Source: Escherichia coli (GTDB lineage: Bacteria; Pseudomonadota; Gammaproteobacteria; Enterobacterales; Enterobacteriaceae). Taken from it: 64,000 bases of DNA. Each line of letters starts with the position of its first letter. Position 1 is the first letter of the stretch. The stretch lies in the NCBI RefSeq assembly GCF_029227855.1, contig NZ_CP074356.1, one strand, 5' to 3'. Below are positions 1,681 to 11,616 of the stretch, piece by piece. A program made the translations under genes and the position numbers. The notes under the pieces are model-generated. The model searched no databases, was not told the DNA's origin, and saw only the letters and a list, made by a program, of their open reading frames with translations.

Positions 1681-1734
1681 ATTCTTCTCCCGAATAAATA
1701 TCCTCCGGCATAGCCGGAGGTTTTTCAAATGCGC

Positions 1735-2445
1735 CTATAAGGCTCTCTTACCAGCCGCGCCCTAACAGGCGCACACGATCTGACATTTGCATCCAACTTC
1801 GTTACTTACGGCCCGTAAACGGGCTGCCCGGATAGGGAATCGATAACTGCTCTCCCATTTTATCCTCTTCAAGCTGGTGCTTTATGTAATCCTGTATCTT
1901 CGCCGTGTTCTTACCCACCGTATCGACGTAGTACCCTCTGCACCAGAACTCCCTGTTCCTGTATTTGAATTTCAAATCACCAAACTGCTCGTAAAGCATC
2001 AGACTGCTTTTCCCTTTCAGATATCCCATAAAGCCGGATACGCTCATTTTGGGCGGGATCTCCACAAGCATATGGATATGATCTGCACAGCATTCAGCTT
2101 CCAGAATCCGTACACTTTTCCACTCACACAGCTTTCTCAAAATACTGCCTATTGCTCTACGCTTCTCTCTGTAGAACACCTGTCTTCGGTATTTTGGCGC
2201 AAAAACTATGTGATATTTACAGTTCCATCGGGTGTGCGCTAAGCTCTTTTCGTTCCCCATTGGGACCCCCTTTTGATTTCTTGTTTGACACTTGCAGTTG
2301 CCAGACCGCAAGGTGTTTTAACAAATCAAAAGGGGTTTTAATAACTGGCTTAAAGCTGAAAGCTTTCCGGAACCCCCAGCCTAGCTGGGGGTTTTCTGTG
2401 CACAAAAAAAACAGGGCTTGCGCCCTGTTTCTTTAATACAGATGT
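1735..2445 (-). mobile_element. IS200-family insertion sequence (about 0.7 kb) inserted between csgA and csgC; boundaries approximate
   Basis: Contains an IS200 TnpA ORF; its upstream leader has an A-run/palindrome/T-run (aaaaaaaacagggcttgcgccctgtttcttt, about 2405-2437) and a second stem-loop overlapping the RBS/ATG (about 2255-2290), as expected for the IS200 left end; the csgA-csgC spacing is about 770 bp versus about 60 bp recalled for K-12. Confidence 0.75.
1802..2260 (-). CDS. tnpA: IS200/IS605-family Y1 (HUH) transposase TnpA
   Basis: Starts MGNEKSLAHTRWNCKYHIVFAPKYRR, contains the HxH motif (ADHIHMLVEIPP) and C-terminal YxxxQ-type region; 152 aa. Confidence 0.9.
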   Translation of the reverse strand: MGNEKSLAHTRWNCKYHIVFAPKYRRQVFYREKRRAIGSILRKLCEWKSVRILEAECCADHIHMLVEIPPKMSVSGFMGYLKGKSSLMLYEQFGDLKFKYRNREFWCRGYYVDTVGKNTAKIQDYIKHQLEEDKMGEQLSIPYPGSPFTGRK

Positions 2446-2448
2446 GAA

Positions 2449-2904
2449 TTAGTACTGATGAGCGGTCGCGTTGTTACCAAAGCCAACCTGAGTGACGTTA
2501 ACGCTGGAGTTAGATGCAGTCTGGTCAACAGCAGCACCGTTACCGCCACCGAACTGTTTAACAGTCATAGTAGAATCTTTACCATTCCACTGATCAAGAG
2601 TAGCGCTGTTGCCGAAACCACGCTGAGTCAGATCGATTGAGCTGTCATCAGAACCTTGGCCAACATCTGCGCCGTTACCGCCGCCGTGCTGGGTAATGGT
2701 CAGATCAGAGTTACGGGCGTCAGCTTGCAGAGCAAGTGCAGAGTTACCGCCACCGTACTGGTAAATGTTCAGCTCTGAATTTGGGCCGCTATTATTACCG
2801 CCACCACCGTGGTTACCGCCGCCGCCGTACTGAGGAACAACACCTGCCAGAGCGCTACCGGAGAATACGATTGCTGCAATTGCTGCTACTTTTAAAAGTT
2901 TCAT
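2449..2904 (-). CDS. csgA: Major curlin subunit CsgA
   Basis: 151 aa, signal peptide, Gly/Asn/Gln-rich imperfect repeats (SxxxxxQxGxGNxA type). Confidence 0.95.
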   Translation of the reverse strand: MKLLKVAAIAAIVFSGSALAGVVPQYGGGGNHGGGGNNSGPNSELNIYQYGGGNSALALQADARNSDLTITQHGGGNGADVGQGSDDSSIDLTQRGFGNSATLDQWNGKDSTMTVKQFGGGNGAAVDQTASNSSVNVTQVGFGNNATAHQY

Positions 2905-2944
2905 GTAAAACCCCCATCGGATTGATTTAAAAGTCGAATAGTAA

Positions 2945-3400
2945 TTAACGTTGTGTCACGCGAATTGCCATTTGCGACTGTCTCTGCACTACAATTGCCG
3001 TTTTTTGAGTACCATACTGTGTAATATTTGCTTTATTACCAGAACCTTTCTGGATAATCATCGCAGTATTACCATAAGCACCTTGCGAAATACTGGCATC
3101 GTTGGCACTGCCCGCCTGATCAATATATGCAAGGTTATAATCTCCTGTCTGATCAATCTTTGCCCGGTTGCTACTACCTTCTTGCGCAACAACCGCCAAA
3201 AGTTTTGAGCCTCCCTGCCGTAACTGAGCACTATTATTAGTCCCAGCTTGACCAATTATGGCTGCCTGATTAAATGAAGACTTACTCAATTCATTTACCG
3301 CGAAGTTATATTCTGAATTAGCTAAATCATAACCTGCTGCGGCTGCAATCCCAGGCGCACCCAGTATTGTTAACATCATAAATAACAATTTGTTTTTCAT
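2945..3400 (-). CDS. csgB: Minor curlin subunit / nucleator CsgB
   Basis: ORF 2945..3427; start at MKNKLLFMMLTILG (151 aa); curlin repeat architecture; upstream of csgA. Confidence 0.93.
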   Translation of the reverse strand: MKNKLLFMMLTILGAPGIAAAAGYDLANSEYNFAVNELSKSSFNQAAIIGQAGTNNSAQLRQGGSKLLAVVAQEGSSNRAKIDQTGDYNLAYIDQAGSANDASISQGAYGNTAMIIQKGSGNKANITQYGTQKTAIVVQRQSQMAIRVTQR

Positions 3401-4155
3401 GTTGTCACCCTGGACCTGGTCGTACATTTAAGAAATTAAATCATTTCAACTTGGTTGTTAACGCAACATGTATTTTGTTAACGCTGCGTTACGATGGAAA
3501 GTATGTCTGCGGAAATATTTTTAATAACTCACCCGCGCGTTGTATTTTTCTTTTTTTGTTCATACCAAAGTATTAAAACCCACGTAAATACGCTGTTATC
3601 TACGCAAAAAAAAATATTTTGTTTTCTTTTAAATCTCCGTTTTCCGCAATCAAAAATCACCAGACAGCCATTCTTCTTGCCCGTCGCTGATTGCTGCGAT
3701 ATGTCTTGCGCACAAGCCGTGACAAACCTCGTCTTTTTGCAGTAAAAAATTGTCCACGGAGGTGTGAAGAAAAAACAACAACGTTTTACATGACGAAAGG
3801 ACTACACCGAAATATTTTTTATATGCATTATTAGTAAGTTAGCACCATTTGTATGATTTTTTAAAATTGTGCAATAAAAACCAAATGTACAACTTTTCTA
3901 TCATTTCTAACTTAACAAAACCTTAAGATTAACATTTTAATATAACGAGTTACATTTAGTTACATGTTTAACACTTGATTTAAGATTTGTAATGGCTAGA
4001 TTGAAATCAGATGTAATCCATTAGTTTTATATTTTACCCATTTAGGGCTGATTTATTACTACACACAGCAGTGCAACATCTGTCAGTACTTCTGGTGCTT
4101 CTATTTTAGAGGCAGCTGTCAGGTGTGCGATCAATAAAAAAAGCGGGGTTTCATC
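3401..4155. promoter_or_regulatory. Divergent csgBAC / csgDEFG intergenic control region (about 755 bp, AT-rich)
   Basis: Long AT-rich spacer between divergent csgB and csgD; known from E. coli to hold sigma-S promoters, multiple transcription-factor sites and the long csgD 5' UTR targeted by sRNAs. Individual sites not mapped here. Confidence 0.7.
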
Positions 4156-4806
<651 letters not shown>

Positions 4807-4810
4807 AGCC

Positions 4811-5200
4811 ATGAAACGTTATTTACGCTGGATTGTGGCGGCAGAATTTCTGTTCGCCGCAGGGAATCTTCACGCCGTTGAGGTAGAAGTCCCGGGATTG
4901 TTAACTGACCATACTGTTTCATCTATTGGCCATGATTTTTACCGAGCCTTTAGTGATAAATGGGAAAGTGACTATACGGGTAACTTAACGATTAATGAAA
5001 GGCCCAGTGCACGATGGGGAAGCTGGATCACTATAACGGTCAATCAGGACGTTATTTTCCAGACTTTTTTATTCCCGTTGAAAAGAGACTTCGAAAAAAC
5101 TGTCGTCTTTGCACTGATTCAAACTGAAGAAGCACTAAATCGTCGCCAGATAAATCAGGCGTTATTAAGTACGGGCGATTTGGCGCATGATGAATTTTAA
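4811..5200 (+). CDS. csgE: Curli secretion specificity factor CsgE
   Basis: 129 aa with signal peptide; gene order csgDEFG. Confidence 0.9.
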
Positions 5201-5224
5201 ATAAAAAATTGTTCGGAGGCTGCA

Positions 5225-5641
5225 ATGCGTGTCAAACATGCAGTAGTTCTACTCATGCTTATTTCGCCTTTAAGTTGGGCTGGAACCATGACTTTCCAGT
5301 TCCGTAATCCAAACTTTGGTGGCAACCCAAATAATGGCGCTTTTTTATTAAATAGCGCCCAGGCACAAAACTCGTATAAAGATCCGAGCTATAACGATGA
5401 CTTTGGTATTGAAACGCCCTCAGCGTTAGATAACTTTACTCAGGCCATCCAGTCACAAATTTTAGGTGGGCTACTGTCGAATATTAATACCGGTAAACCG
5501 GGCCGCATGGTGACCAACGATTATATTGTTGATATTGCTAACCGCGATGGTCAATTGCAGTTGAACGTGACAGATCGTAAAACCGGACAAACCTCGACCA
5601 TCCAGGTTTCGGGTTTACAAAATAACTCAACCGATTTTTAA
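5225..5641 (+). CDS. csgF: Curli assembly component CsgF
   Basis: 138 aa with signal peptide; gene order. Confidence 0.9.
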
Positions 5642-5667
5642 GCCCCAGCTTCATAAGGAAAATAATC

Positions 5668-6501
5668 ATGCAGCGCTTATTTCTTTTGGTTGCCGTCATG
5701 TTACTGAGCGGATGCTTAACCGCCCCGCCTAAAGAAGCCGCCAGACCGACATTAATGCCTCGTGCTCAGAGCTACAAAGATTTGACCCATCTGCCAGCGC
5801 CGACGGGTAAGATCTTTGTTTCGGTATACAACATTCAGGACGAAACCGGGCAATTTAAACCTTACCCGGCAAGTAACTTCTCCACTGCTGTTCCGCAAAG
5901 CGCCACGGCAATGCTGGTCACGGCATTGAAAGATTCTCGCTGGTTTATACCGCTGGAGCGCCAGGGCTTACAAAACCTGCTTAACGAGCGCAAGATTATT
6001 CGTGCGGCACAAGAAAACGGCACGGTTGCCATTAATAACCGAATCCCGCTGCAATCTTTAACGGCGGCAAATATCATGGTTGAAGGTTCGATTATCGGTT
6101 ATGAAAGCAACGTTAAATCGGGCGGTGTTGGGGCAAGATATTTTGGGATCGGTGCAGACACGCAATACCAGCTTGATCAGATTGCCGTGAACCTGCGTGT
6201 CGTCAATGTGAGTACCGGTGAGATCCTCTCCTCGGTGAACACCAGTAAGACGATACTTTCCTATGAAGTTCAGGCGGGGGTCTTCCGCTTTATTGACTAC
6301 CAGCGCTTGCTGGAAGGGGAAGTGGGTTACACCTCGAACGAACCCGTGATGCTGTGCCTGATGTCGGCTATCGAAACAGGCGTCATTTTCCTGATTAATG
6401 ATGGTATCGACCGCGGTCTTTGGGATTTGCAAAATAAAGCAGAACGGCAGAATGACATTCTGGTGAAATACCGCCATATGTCGGTTCCACCGGAATCCTG
6501 A
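5668..6501 (+). CDS. csgG: Curli outer-membrane secretion channel lipoprotein CsgG
   Basis: 277 aa; lipobox (LLSGC) after signal peptide. Confidence 0.93.
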   Translation: MQRLFLLVAVMLLSGCLTAPPKEAARPTLMPRAQSYKDLTHLPAPTGKIFVSVYNIQDETGQFKPYPASNFSTAVPQSATAMLVTALKDSRWFIPLERQGLQNLLNERKIIRAAQENGTVAINNRIPLQSLTAANIMVEGSIIGYESNVKSGGVGARYFGIGADTQYQLDQIAVNLRVVNVSTGEILSSVNTSKTILSYEVQAGVFRFIDYQRLLEGEVGYTSNEPVMLCLMSAIETGVIFLINDGIDRGLWDLQNKAERQNDILVKYRHMSVPPES

Positions 6502-6508
6502 TAGATAA

Positions 6509-6540
6509 AAATGCCGGAATTAATAATCCGGCATTTTACT
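6509..6540 (+). terminator. Intrinsic terminator after csgG
   Basis: Hairpin aaatgccggaattaataatccggcattt followed by T-rich tract. Confidence 0.6.
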
Positions 6541-6565
6541 GTTTAAGCGAAAGCGTGAGTGCCCC

Positions 6566-7057
6566 TCACGCTTTATTTTTGATTTGCTGCTCACGGTGAG
6601 CGGTCTTCGTACTACGCGCCGCCAGCCACAGGCCGCTGTTTTTCATTGCGTAACCAAATATCAACCCGAGCGCCAGCGAAGGTAACACCAGTTTCCAGTC
6701 ACCCTGCCCGGCAAACGTCGCGCATGCGCCTATAAACGTCCCCGGAACAAATGAAAGCAGCAGCTGTTTGGCCTGAATACACATCAGAAACGCGACAATA
6801 CCGGTTATGACATAACCGAGAATTTCCAGATGTGGTGCCAGTGCACTACCGTAAATAATGACCATCGCCCACACCACGCCACTAAGCAGGGTTGCAGCGG
6901 AGATCGCCAGCCCTTTCAGCCCACCTTGCGGGCAGGCAAAGTAGGCCGTACAGCCCAGGAAGCCCGCCCAGCTTAGTAAGCCCAGGGAAACAGCCACCCA
7001 TCCCCAGATACCGGAGAGAATGCCTGTTGTGATTGCAATAGAGAGAAGTATGTTCAT
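6566..7057 (-). CDS. ycdZ: Inner-membrane protein YcdZ
   Basis: ORF 6566..7105; probable start at MNILLSIAIT (163 aa); multiple transmembrane segments. Confidence 0.75.
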   Translation of the reverse strand: MNILLSIAITTGILSGIWGWVAVSLGLLSWAGFLGCTAYFACPQGGLKGLAISAATLLSGVVWAMVIIYGSALAPHLEILGYVITGIVAFLMCIQAKQLLLSFVPGTFIGACATFAGQGDWKLVLPSLALGLIFGYAMKNSGLWLAARSTKTAHREQQIKNKA

Positions 7058-7158
7058 GCCGCGCATGATAGCAGAAAACGCGGCCATGAATGAGATCGAG
7101 CACACATTTTATGCAACAACAAATTATCTGTTGCAGTTATGAGTGATGCAGATCACAT

Positions 7159-7713
7159 TTACTCTTCAGAATCTTCTTCCAGCTCGTCCCACATTGCACT
7201 AATAGCATCGCGGGTTAGCGGTGCCATGGTGCGCCAAAAAGGCGTAGTTGCATGGGCCTCCACTTTACCAAGGAACGCACCACACCAGGGTAACAGATAC
7301 TCACTGAACAGTGTTTCCAGTGCTTCGCTCTCATCTTCCGTTGACTGATCTTCCAGCCAGGAAGCCGCGAGCAGCAATGTGCCGATGTGATCGGCTGGCG
7401 TATCCGCTAATGGCATCCCCCGTTCGGAAAGAAAAGCGCGCACTTCCGCTTCCGTCGCGCCCTCAACCCATGCGCTACGATATGGCGGCACAGCACATTC
7501 ATTGCCGATAAACAACGCATTGTAATCGGCAGAGACTTGCGTCATATCACAGCTTTTCTGCAAACGTGTCAGCAACTCATCCTGCTCCAGTGGCCAGTTC
7601 GCAGCCAGTTTCCCCTCACGAATCAGGGTAAACAGCGGCACCAGTAAAGGATCTTGTGGTTGGCGGTAATAGAGCGAACCCAGCACACGACAGAGGATAG
7701 AAAACTCGTTCAT
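7159..7713 (-). CDS. ycdY: TorD-family redox-enzyme maturation chaperone YcdY
   Basis: 184 aa; position next to ycdX. Confidence 0.8.
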   Translation of the reverse strand: MNEFSILCRVLGSLYYRQPQDPLLVPLFTLIREGKLAANWPLEQDELLTRLQKSCDMTQVSADYNALFIGNECAVPPYRSAWVEGATEAEVRAFLSERGMPLADTPADHIGTLLLAASWLEDQSTEDESEALETLFSEYLLPWCGAFLGKVEAHATTPFWRTMAPLTRDAISAMWDELEEDSEE

Positions 7714-7736
7714 TAATATATTTCCATTACTAGTAA

Positions 7737-8474
7737 TTAAAGGTCTGCAAATTCCGCAATCGGTGCCATACCGCGAGATTCAAGGAAGTTCAGTAAGCGG
7801 CGCGGAGAAACATTCAAAATGCGCTCTGGCGGAAAATCTACCGCGTCGAGGATTTTAAGACACTCTTCAAATTCACCCATGGTAAACGCGGTGTGAGAAT
7901 CCGAGCCTAATGCCACCCAACCTCCAGCGTCACGTACTGCTGCGGCTACCGCACGACAATTGTCTTCACTTCCCTTACGTGAGTGTAAAAAAGAGGAATT
8001 ATTGATTTCCAGCGCCACCTGATGTTTCGCGGCTGCTTCAGCAACGGCTTTAACATCTATTTCATATTTCGGATTTCCGGGATGGCTTATTATATGCACA
8101 TTGCCGCTGGCGATAGTGGCGATCATCGCTTGCGTATTGGTCGCTTTGTCATGCGGCGCAAACACCGGCTCATGAAAACCGGCAATAATCAGATCCAGCG
8201 AATCAAACATTTTGCCACTGCAGTCAATTTCACCGTCAACATTTTTAATGTTAGCTTCGATGCCGCGCAGGATCCCAACCCCATCAACCACTCGCGGCCA
8301 GATACGCATGTTAATGAAGTGCCAGTGATGCGGCGCATCTTCCATATCCGGGCCATGATCGGTGATCGCAAAAAGTTTAATGCCCTTTTGTTTGGCCTGG
8401 GCAATGTAATCACTCAATGTGCTATATGCATGCGTGCTGGCAACGGTATGCATATGAAGGTCGACGGGATACAT
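7737..8474 (-). CDS. ycdX: PHP-domain metal-dependent phosphatase YcdX
   Basis: 245 aa; N-terminal [18 protein letters not shown] (PHP-domain His motif). Confidence 0.85.
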
Positions 8475-9893: not shown

Positions 9894-11261
9894 TCATTCA
9901 TCATCCTTGCGGTTGATAAGAATTTCTGCCTCTTTTACTACCACCTTATTACGCCCGGTCTCTTTCGCCTCGTAAAGTGCGTTATCAGCCAGTTGATAGA
10001 TCTCCTTAGGGTTTAACTCATTTTTCTGCGTTACAACAGCGCCAATACTAATCGTCACTTTTTGTGGTATGGCGTATTCAGGATTATCACCAGTTAAACG
10101 CTCAACATTTTCCCGAATCCTTTCCGCTAAAGCTTTCGCACGTTCAGTATCGATGTCCGTCAGCAAGACGCCAAACTCTTCGCCGCCGACGCGCGCAAAA
10201 AGGTCATCTGGCCGTATGCTTTTCCCAATGATACTCACCACTGTTTTTATCACCTGATCGCCAACCGGATGCCCCCAGGTGTCGTTGACTTTTTTGAAGT
10301 GGTCGATATCCATAATCATGACGCAATAAGGCGTTTTTTTGGCCGATGCTGATTGAACTGTCAGTTCATTAAAAAAATAATTTCTGTTAAATATATTGGT
10401 TAAGGAATCGCGATGTGCAATGTCCTTTGTTACTCGTAGCGCACTGAATATATGGCACATAAATATTACCATAACGGTTAACTTACTGACTACTTCAATA
10501 GTGCGACTAATATACCAAATGGACACGCTATACCTGCTCATAAATAAAAGAGAGACATTGTACAGTACGGCACAAAAAGCAATCACCGTCACTCCATTCC
10601 AGATATCACAGCGTAAACCATTAAAGTATAGATTAACTGAAAGCAAGGTTAACCACATGAAAATCATTATGGTAACATATGATGTTTTCCAAACCACCTG
10701 ATCATTTTCATTGGTTAACTCGGCAATGTGTAAATTGTAGCTCTCATAATGACTAGAAAGTATGTGAGCAACTATCGGCCCCCCAACAACAAAAAACAAA
10801 CTTATGCACAAAGTCATTTTTTTAGAAAATAAATTGCGCTGTTTTGTGTTTTCACTAACTTTATTCACCAATGCCAGAAATATTAATATGCACAAACTCA
10901 TCTGACGAAACAAATAATAGATTGCAATGTCATTTTGAACAACACTGCTTGTCAAACGCCCCTCAATAATTTGCTGAATGATAATGACGGTTTTAACAAA
11001 GTAAATCAAACAACTCAGAAAAGCCAAACTAAGTATACAGTTTGAAAATTGCCTACGGTCATAAATGAAATACAACTGCATAAAAATAAATGCAACAGTA
11101 TCGATAAAAAATAAAGCAATCATTACCATCAGATAGGTTGATCGTGGAACAACTTCCTCAACGCCTGGCTGATTAAACCAACTATTCACCAAAACCAAAG
11201 CAAGCCCAAACAATAAGCTCACTAATACAGTACTACTAATTCTCAAATAGTCTTTTTCCAT
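9894..11261 (-). CDS. dgcT: Membrane-anchored diguanylate cyclase (GGDEF/GGEEF domain)
   Basis: ORF 9894..11384; probable start at MEKDYLRISS (456 aa); N-terminal multi-TM region, C-terminal GGDEF domain with RVGGEEFGVLL; divergent from pgaA (ycdT in K-12). Confidence 0.85.
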   Translation of the reverse strand: MEKDYLRISSTVLVSLLFGLALVLVNSWFNQPGVEEVVPRSTYLMVMIALFFIDTVAFIFMQLYFIYDRRQFSNCILSLAFLSCLIYFVKTVIIIQQIIEGRLTSSVVQNDIAIYYLFRQMSLCILIFLALVNKVSENTKQRNLFSKKMTLCISLFFVVGGPIVAHILSSHYESYNLHIAELTNENDQVVWKTSYVTIMIFMWLTLLSVNLYFNGLRCDIWNGVTVIAFCAVLYNVSLLFMSRYSVSIWYISRTIEVVSKLTVMVIFMCHIFSALRVTKDIAHRDSLTNIFNRNYFFNELTVQSASAKKTPYCVMIMDIDHFKKVNDTWGHPVGDQVIKTVVSIIGKSIRPDDLFARVGGEEFGVLLTDIDTERAKALAERIRENVERLTGDNPEYAIPQKVTISIGAVVTQKNELNPKEIYQLADNALYEAKETGRNKVVVKEAEILINRKDDE

Positions 11262-11616
11262 AAAGCTACACCAATCTGTAGGTTGTAGATCCCTTTCTAT
11301 TATTAATAGATATAAGAACTGTACTGTTGTCAATATGAAATTCCGCCCACAAACAATACCAATGATGATAGTTGCATACCGCAATTATTATTGCCTTAGT
11401 GCTTTATACATTCTTCGCGACAAGACAGGCTTGCAAATACATATAAATGGTTATAAGGAAATCCTTATAAAACATTAATTCATAGATATATTAGGAATAA
11501 CAATTGAATCCGTGAGTACAGTAACGCTGCACTTCATCAGGACTTTCGAAAAATCGATATCATGCATCGGAATTTACTGATTTAATTATTTTAATCCTAA
11601 TTTATTTTGAAAAAGG

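Follow-up and report, generated by a model that had tools for sequence, protein, structure and literature searches.

The 755-bp region that separates csgB from csgD in this Escherichia coli strain is, with a probability that we put at roughly 0.93, the canonical csg regulatory hub of the species, with its established elements intact and its function predicted to be intact as well. The csgB-csgD control region is an already known feature. We analyzed it within a 64,000-nucleotide stretch of DNA (here called the window), determining sequence identity, motif positions, and the allele frequencies of variants directly, and we infer protein binding, curvature, and regulatory logic from published work on K-12 and O157:H7.

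In the scheme drawn from studies of K-12 (PMC12713406, PMC3535384, PMC4894380), csgDEFG would be driven by a weak sigma-S/sigma-70 promoter on the plus strand, with its start site at about 4008. This promoter would depend on the upstream activators OmpR (-59..-44), MlrA (-145..-112), and IHF and would be opposed by H-NS and CpxR acting on AT-rich, intrinsically bent DNA. The 148-nt csgD leader would fold into two stem-loops and serve as a target of Hfq-dependent small RNAs, and CsgD bound to a box at 3525-3535 upstream of csgB would switch on csgBAC on the minus strand.

The csgB-csgD region is the largest gap in its neighborhood and is conserved across E. coli

The region and the two genes that bound it are as follows.

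2945..3400, minus strand: csgB coding sequence (curli nucleator), left boundary, from the open reading frame (ORF) list; MKNKLLFMMLTILG...
3401..4155, no strand assigned: csgB-csgD divergent intergenic control region, 755 bp, 34.3% GC
4156..4806, plus strand: csgD coding sequence (master regulator, 216 aa), right boundary, from the ORF list

According to the ORF coordinates, the start codons of csgB (3400) and csgD (4156) face away from each other with exactly 755 bp between them. The nearest complete genome is that of JNEC-KY178 (NZ_AP045174.1, 3095983..3159271), a clinical isolate from Japan. In a comparison covering 2404..8000, csgB and csgD showed no substitutions relative to this strain, in which they are annotated as csgB and csgD (WP_000481500.1); the flanks are likewise the annotated csgB and csgD in K-12 and in 18 other fetched records. 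Matches covering 80% or more of the region, at 97.2 to 99.9% identity, were found in 5,329 of 5,426 complete E. coli genomes, which bears out the identification of the locus in an earlier note as the hub of curli regulation. None of the complete RefSeq E. coli genomes contains an exact match to all 755 bp. Across the sampled strains the intergenic length is 743 to 755 bp; the published length is 754 bp, and natural polymorphism of the region has been described (bioRxiv 10.64898/2026.04.22.719398). Five or six of the matches fell on records labeled as plasmids, which could be mislabeled replicons or plasmid-borne chromosomal segments.

The earlier note had ranked this region among the largest intergenic regions of the window and had called it very AT-rich, with poly-A/T tracts; all three descriptions hold. 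In the RefSeq annotation of JNEC-KY178, no other intergenic gap of the syntenic 64 kb is as long as that between csgB and csgD (754 bp); next in size are efeU-putP (653 bp), phoH-efeB (619 bp), and dgcT-pgaA (589 bp), and the ORF-based list of gaps in the window concurs once small genes and a spurious ORF are allowed for. The GC content is 34.3%, versus 50.4% for the window, and falls to 24% upstream of the csgD promoter (3801..4008). Equally AT-rich stretches of 755 bp make up 2.5% of all those in the 64 kb. The two other 755-bp blocks of lowest GC content are found at 39364..40118 (31%) and 10860..11614 (32%); the latter overlaps the dgcT-pgaA intergenic region, also a biofilm-related control region.

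Runs of A or T of at least 5 nt occur 12 times in the region, or 15.9 per kb versus 4.2 per kb window-wide. This number is three times the expectation from mononucleotide shuffles (4.0 +/- 1.9, P<0.0005) and lies closer to that from dinucleotide-preserving shuffles (8.8 +/- 2.2, P=0.10). The tracts thus exceed what base composition predicts, but the richness in AA and TT largely accounts for them. An AA/TT periodicity of ~10.8 bp is modest, with uncorrected P values of about 0.003 to 0.01 in sub-regions. Binding of H-NS and IHF and curvature of the csg region are statements of the literature (PMC12713406, PMC4894380), in which H-NS covers the K-12 csgD promoter from +28 to -201 (PMC12713406, PMC3535384, PMC4894380). 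In the window, the low GC content (24 to 34%), the density of A/T tracts, and the modest periodicity are indirect evidence for such binding and curvature.

The csgD promoter and leader match those of K-12

Two features make up the csgD-proximal end of the region.

3975..4002, plus strand: csgD core promoter, with a -35-like TTGATT at 3975-3980, a 16-bp spacer, and a -10 TAGATT at 3997-4002, assigned by inspection
4008..4155, plus strand: csgD mRNA 5' leader, ~148 nt, 100% identical to K-12

The position of the start site, ~148 nt before the ATG, is derived from the literature: an MqsA palindrome has been placed 78 bp upstream of the csgD start site (PMC4894380), and because this palindrome ends at 3930 in the window, we set the start site at 4008. 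The core promoter is identical to that of K-12, and positions 3958-4008 are invariant in 19 of 19 aligned strains. On sequence grounds, the csgD core promoter is the wild-type, tightly regulated form.

A single-base change in the csgD -10 region of O157:H7, AATCT to ATTCT, leads to constitutive curli production (PMC7232329). The A-to-T change (ATTCT) is absent from the window, in which 3998-4002 reads AGATT, or AATCT on the opposite strand (3997-4002 reads TAGATT, or AATCTA). The window therefore shares the promoter and hexamer position with the curli-constitutive alleles of O157:H7 43895 and FB38 and, with its wild-type AATCT, does not belong to this class. A generic scan for sigma-70 promoters and terminators over 3350..4200 returned two promoter-like matches, fewer than expected from shuffled sequence, neither of which was the real csgD or csgB promoter; such a scan is uninformative for the weak, activator-dependent promoters of these genes.

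The leader is structured and is predicted to be targeted by small RNAs. The Rfam family ES056 (RF02752), which comprises two stem-loops, matches at full length at 4009..4100 with 119.7 bits (gathering threshold 43, E=2e-23), and a search of 3300..4300 at a permissive E value recovered ES056 and no further known RNA.

Putative regulator sites upstream of csgD and csgB are largely those of K-12

The following sites lie upstream of csgD; negative numbers are counted from the csgD start site.

3863..3896 (-145..-112), plus strand: putative MlrA box, imperfect palindrome AAAATTGTGCA-N12-TGTACAACTTT, two mismatches to the consensus, identical to K-12
3906..3940, no strand assigned: CpxR boxes and proximal IHF zone, holding a 1-bp deletion at ~3908, T to C at 3916, and G to A at 3928
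3919..3930, plus strand: MqsA-type palindrome, degenerate, AACCTTAAGATT here versus AACCTTAAGGTT in K-12
3949..3964 (-59..-44), plus strand: putative OmpR activator site, direct repeat GTTACATTTAGTTACA, exact pattern match, identical to K-12

Two further elements lie near csgB.

3455..3484, minus strand: two GCGTTAACAA direct repeats upstream of csgB, from a pattern scan, with a single-nucleotide polymorphism (SNP) at 3468 between them
3525..3535, minus strand: putative CsgD box CGGGTGAGTTA, exact match to CGGGKGAKNKA, 125-135 bp upstream of the csgB ATG

We take the GTTACATTTAGTTACA repeat to be the OmpR site of Prigent-Combaret 2001 and Jubelin 2005, the palindromic consensus applied at 3863..3896 to be the MlrA consensus of Ogasawara 2010 (FEMS Microbiol Lett), and CGGGKGAKNKA to be the CsgD-box consensus described for Salmonella by Zakikhany et al. 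2010. The evidence gathered here for the OmpR, MlrA, and CsgD sites is the pattern match itself. The CsgD box is identical to that of K-12 and contains no variable column across 19 strains. OmpR has been reported as required (PMC12713406). For CpxR, IHF, and H-NS we used coordinates second-hand from PMC4894380, which quotes K-12 CpxR boxes at -90..-102 and -68..-80 and a promoter-proximal IHF site at -37..-96. Scans with degenerate IHF, CpxR, CRP, and RcdA consensus sequences gave low-specificity matches, with one to three mismatches in AT-rich DNA, and these were not treated as sites.

The MqsA-type palindrome (AACCT-N2-3-AGGTT) departs from its intact form by one mismatch in the right half-site, caused by the G-to-A change at 3928 (-80). 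A five-base change in this palindrome has been found to abolish MqsA binding (PMC4894380). We considered whether the broken palindrome is special to this strain and rejected the idea: among 17 sampled strains, nine carry A at 3928 (ST131 and O26 included), six carry G, and two carry T. The A at 3928 that breaks the palindrome is a common polymorphism.

A different change was seen in another strain of the sample, WCHEC000837 (L015), whose csg intergenic region is 743 bp long. In this strain, the 10 bp homologous to 3948..3957 are deleted, and with them the first GTTACA half-site for OmpR; this deletion is a candidate natural curli-negative allele.

Differences from K-12 are concentrated away from the csgD promoter and leader

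The earlier note had proposed an alignment to K-12 as a check on the region. Compared with K-12 MG1655 (NC_000913.3, 1103197..1103950, 754 bp), which has the same flanking genes in the same orientation, the region is 98.3% identical, with 13 differences. There are ten substitutions (3468, 3557, 3648, 3657, 3668, 3767, 3779, 3842, 3916, and 3928), a run of nine A's at 3606-3614 (A9) in place of A7, and a 1-bp deletion at ~3908 (CTAAAC to CTAAC), near -100 of the csgD promoter; neither this deletion nor a broken MqsA palindrome is found in K-12, whose palindrome is perfect. None of the 13 differences lies in 3929..4155, so that the region matches K-12 exactly from the OmpR site through both promoter hexamers and the start site to the end of the leader, with its Shine-Dalgarno region.

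We placed these differences in an alignment of 19 E. coli sequences, mostly picked at even steps down a similarity ranking; some tallies were made on 17 of them. The alignment contains 67 variable columns, which are unevenly distributed. Next to the invariant core promoter, the csgB-proximal 140 bp and the leader have ~4 variable columns per 100 bp, and the middle and the upstream-activator zone have 12 to 17 per 100 bp. At 3557 and 3657 it is the K-12 allele that is private in the 17-strain sample. The C-to-A change at 3468 (-68 from the csgB ATG) is shared only with JNEC-KY178, one of 5,357 genomes. The -100 deletion occurs as an exact, full-length match only in JNEC-KY178 and could be shared by at most 12 of 5,238 genomes. 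Most differences from K-12 are common E. coli polymorphisms, the rare ones being 3468A, the -100 deletion, and A9. Together, the 13 differences are best read as the natural variation of a rare lineage, to which JNEC-KY178 is the closest among complete genomes.

Alternatively, the control region might be functionally altered in this lineage, with a changed curli level or temperature dependence. The -100 deletion and the SNPs at -92 and -80 could weaken repressor sites for CpxR and MqsA, and the deletion could also turn the upstream MlrA and IHF complexes by ~34 degrees relative to the core promoter. The variants do lie inside the reported CpxR boxes, IHF site, and MqsA palindrome, and the deletion is almost unique to this lineage; in addition, a 2026 preprint ties polymorphism of the csg region to variability of the rdar morphotype (bioRxiv 10.64898/2026.04.22.719398), and one altered base in the csgD promoter can be enough to turn curli on (PMC7232329). 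We nevertheless regard such an alteration as unlikely. The mutations known to switch the phenotype affect the -10 hexamer, of which the window has the wild-type form, and the A allele at -80 is carried by about half of the sampled strains. Moreover, deletion of cpxR, mqsR, rstA, basR, or rcdA left csgBA expression unchanged in K-12 (PMC12713406), and because cpxR and mqsR were dispensable in this sense, variants in the CpxR/MqsA zone would be unlikely to matter much. In weighing the preferred reading of an intact hub, we counted against it the rare variants in regulatory DNA (3468A, the -100 deletion in a reported CpxR box, and A9), the broken though common MqsA palindrome, and the modest curvature periodicity.

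A polymorphic A-tract is the only difference from the nearest relative within the region

Two features overlap in the middle of the region.

3606..3614, plus strand: A9 homopolymer, the longest allele seen and the sole difference from JNEC-KY178 in the region
3494..3745, plus strand: spurious 83-aa ORF, open by chance

The control region is 99.9% identical to that of JNEC-KY178, which has A8 in place of A9 and shares the other 12 differences from K-12. The length of the tract is polymorphic in E. coli, with alleles from A5 to A9 seen. Exact matches with the same flanks in complete E. coli genomes numbered 2,494 for A6, 1,993 for A7, 34 for A8, and 0 for A9; the A8 records listed are of diverse origin (human, sewage, dog, and cow).

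The private A9 (versus A8) reflects either recent slippage or a miscalled homopolymer, and it is most likely without phenotypic effect. A miscall, whether of A9 in the assembled window or of A8 in JNEC-KY178, would make the two control regions identical. We give this explanation real weight while holding it to be the weaker of the two possibilities. The A9/A8 difference is the sole indel over 63 kb between two near-identical strains, it affects one of the window's two longest homopolymers, and A9 was seen in none of 5,426 complete genomes, all of which would fit an error; the other four homopolymers of at least 8 nt in the window have the same length in JNEC-KY178, and the variation from A5 to A8 over E. 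coli indicates that slippage does occur at this site. In a further and very improbable scenario, the A-tract would be a spacer prone to slippage, its length setting the helical phase of the CsgD complex near csgB relative to the nucleoprotein complexes near csgD. If this were true, A9 and the -100 deletion together would give the lineage a curli pattern of its own, such as a change in bimodality or in the response to temperature.

The 83-aa ORF contains the polymorphic tract, and its frame is intact only with A6 or A9. It begins with ATG and has 83 open codons, and it is open in 9 of the 19 strains, as might be expected if a small protein were made from inside the control region. That a protein is encoded here is scarcely credible, given that the frame is truncated at 45-75 codons in the other 10 strains, including K-12, UTI89, and JNEC-KY178, that a Pfam scan of the product returned no match, and that regulatory function accounts for the conservation of the surrounding DNA. 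The suspicion that this ORF is noise was well founded.

An IS200 copy beside csgC arrived without changes in the control region

The earlier note had pointed to an IS200 in csgBAC and to the need to confirm that the control region is otherwise unaltered. The element is present between csgA and csgC, outside the control region.

1699..2403, minus strand: IS200C copy, from BLAST against JNEC-KY178, alignment of the junctions, and the tnpA ORF
2270..2393, minus strand: STnc490 (Hfq-binding RNA), Rfam match at full length with 146 bits, coinciding with the IS200 5' end

The insertion, with junctions at ~2404 and ~1698, is immediately flanked on one side by the T8 run of the csgA terminator hairpin and on the other by the ribosome-binding site of csgC; it lies 13 nt before the csgC ATG and has the same orientation as csgBAC. 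At this position IS200C may uncouple csgC from csgBA transcription.

Over 63 kb, the window differs from JNEC-KY178 by 8 SNPs, the A9/A8 indel, and the IS200, which JNEC-KY178 lacks between csgA and csgC. Because the control region of this IS200-free strain differs by a single A, the region was not remodeled along with the insertion, and we rejected the possibility that IS200 arrived together with control-region changes. An identical insertion site was found in at least seven other complete E. coli genomes (MEW, AR_0137, 005008, N1131, AR_0114, L6-21, and EC16). The flanks of MEW and N1131, the two that we fetched, diverge from the window by 0.6 to 0.75%, versus only 0.02% for IS200-free JNEC-KY178. 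The presence of IS200 in more divergent genomes and its absence from the nearest relative suggest either that the site is a hotspot for repeated insertion or that recombination has transferred the segment.

Relation to Salmonella and implications for curli regulation

The csgD-csgB (agfD-agfB) region of Salmonella enterica is shorter, at about 520 bp, and its CsgD box presumably follows the same consensus as the box in the window. Compared by description, the Salmonella region has the same divergent layout and receives the same OmpR, MlrA, IHF, H-NS, and CpxR inputs (PMC13304067). H-NS has been reported as an activator in Salmonella and as a repressor in E. coli (PMC12713406).

By sequence, then, this strain retains an intact master switch for curli, a result that matters little beyond annotation. 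Should the strain show a curli defect or change, the IS200 beside csgC or regulators acting in trans (rpoS, mlrA, and ompR) would be a more plausible source than the control region. The analysis makes two small additions to what is known of the region. One is the distribution of A-tract lengths over about 5,300 genomes. The other is that about half of the sampled E. coli strains lack the K-12 MqsA palindrome, which bears on the generality of the regulation reported for it.
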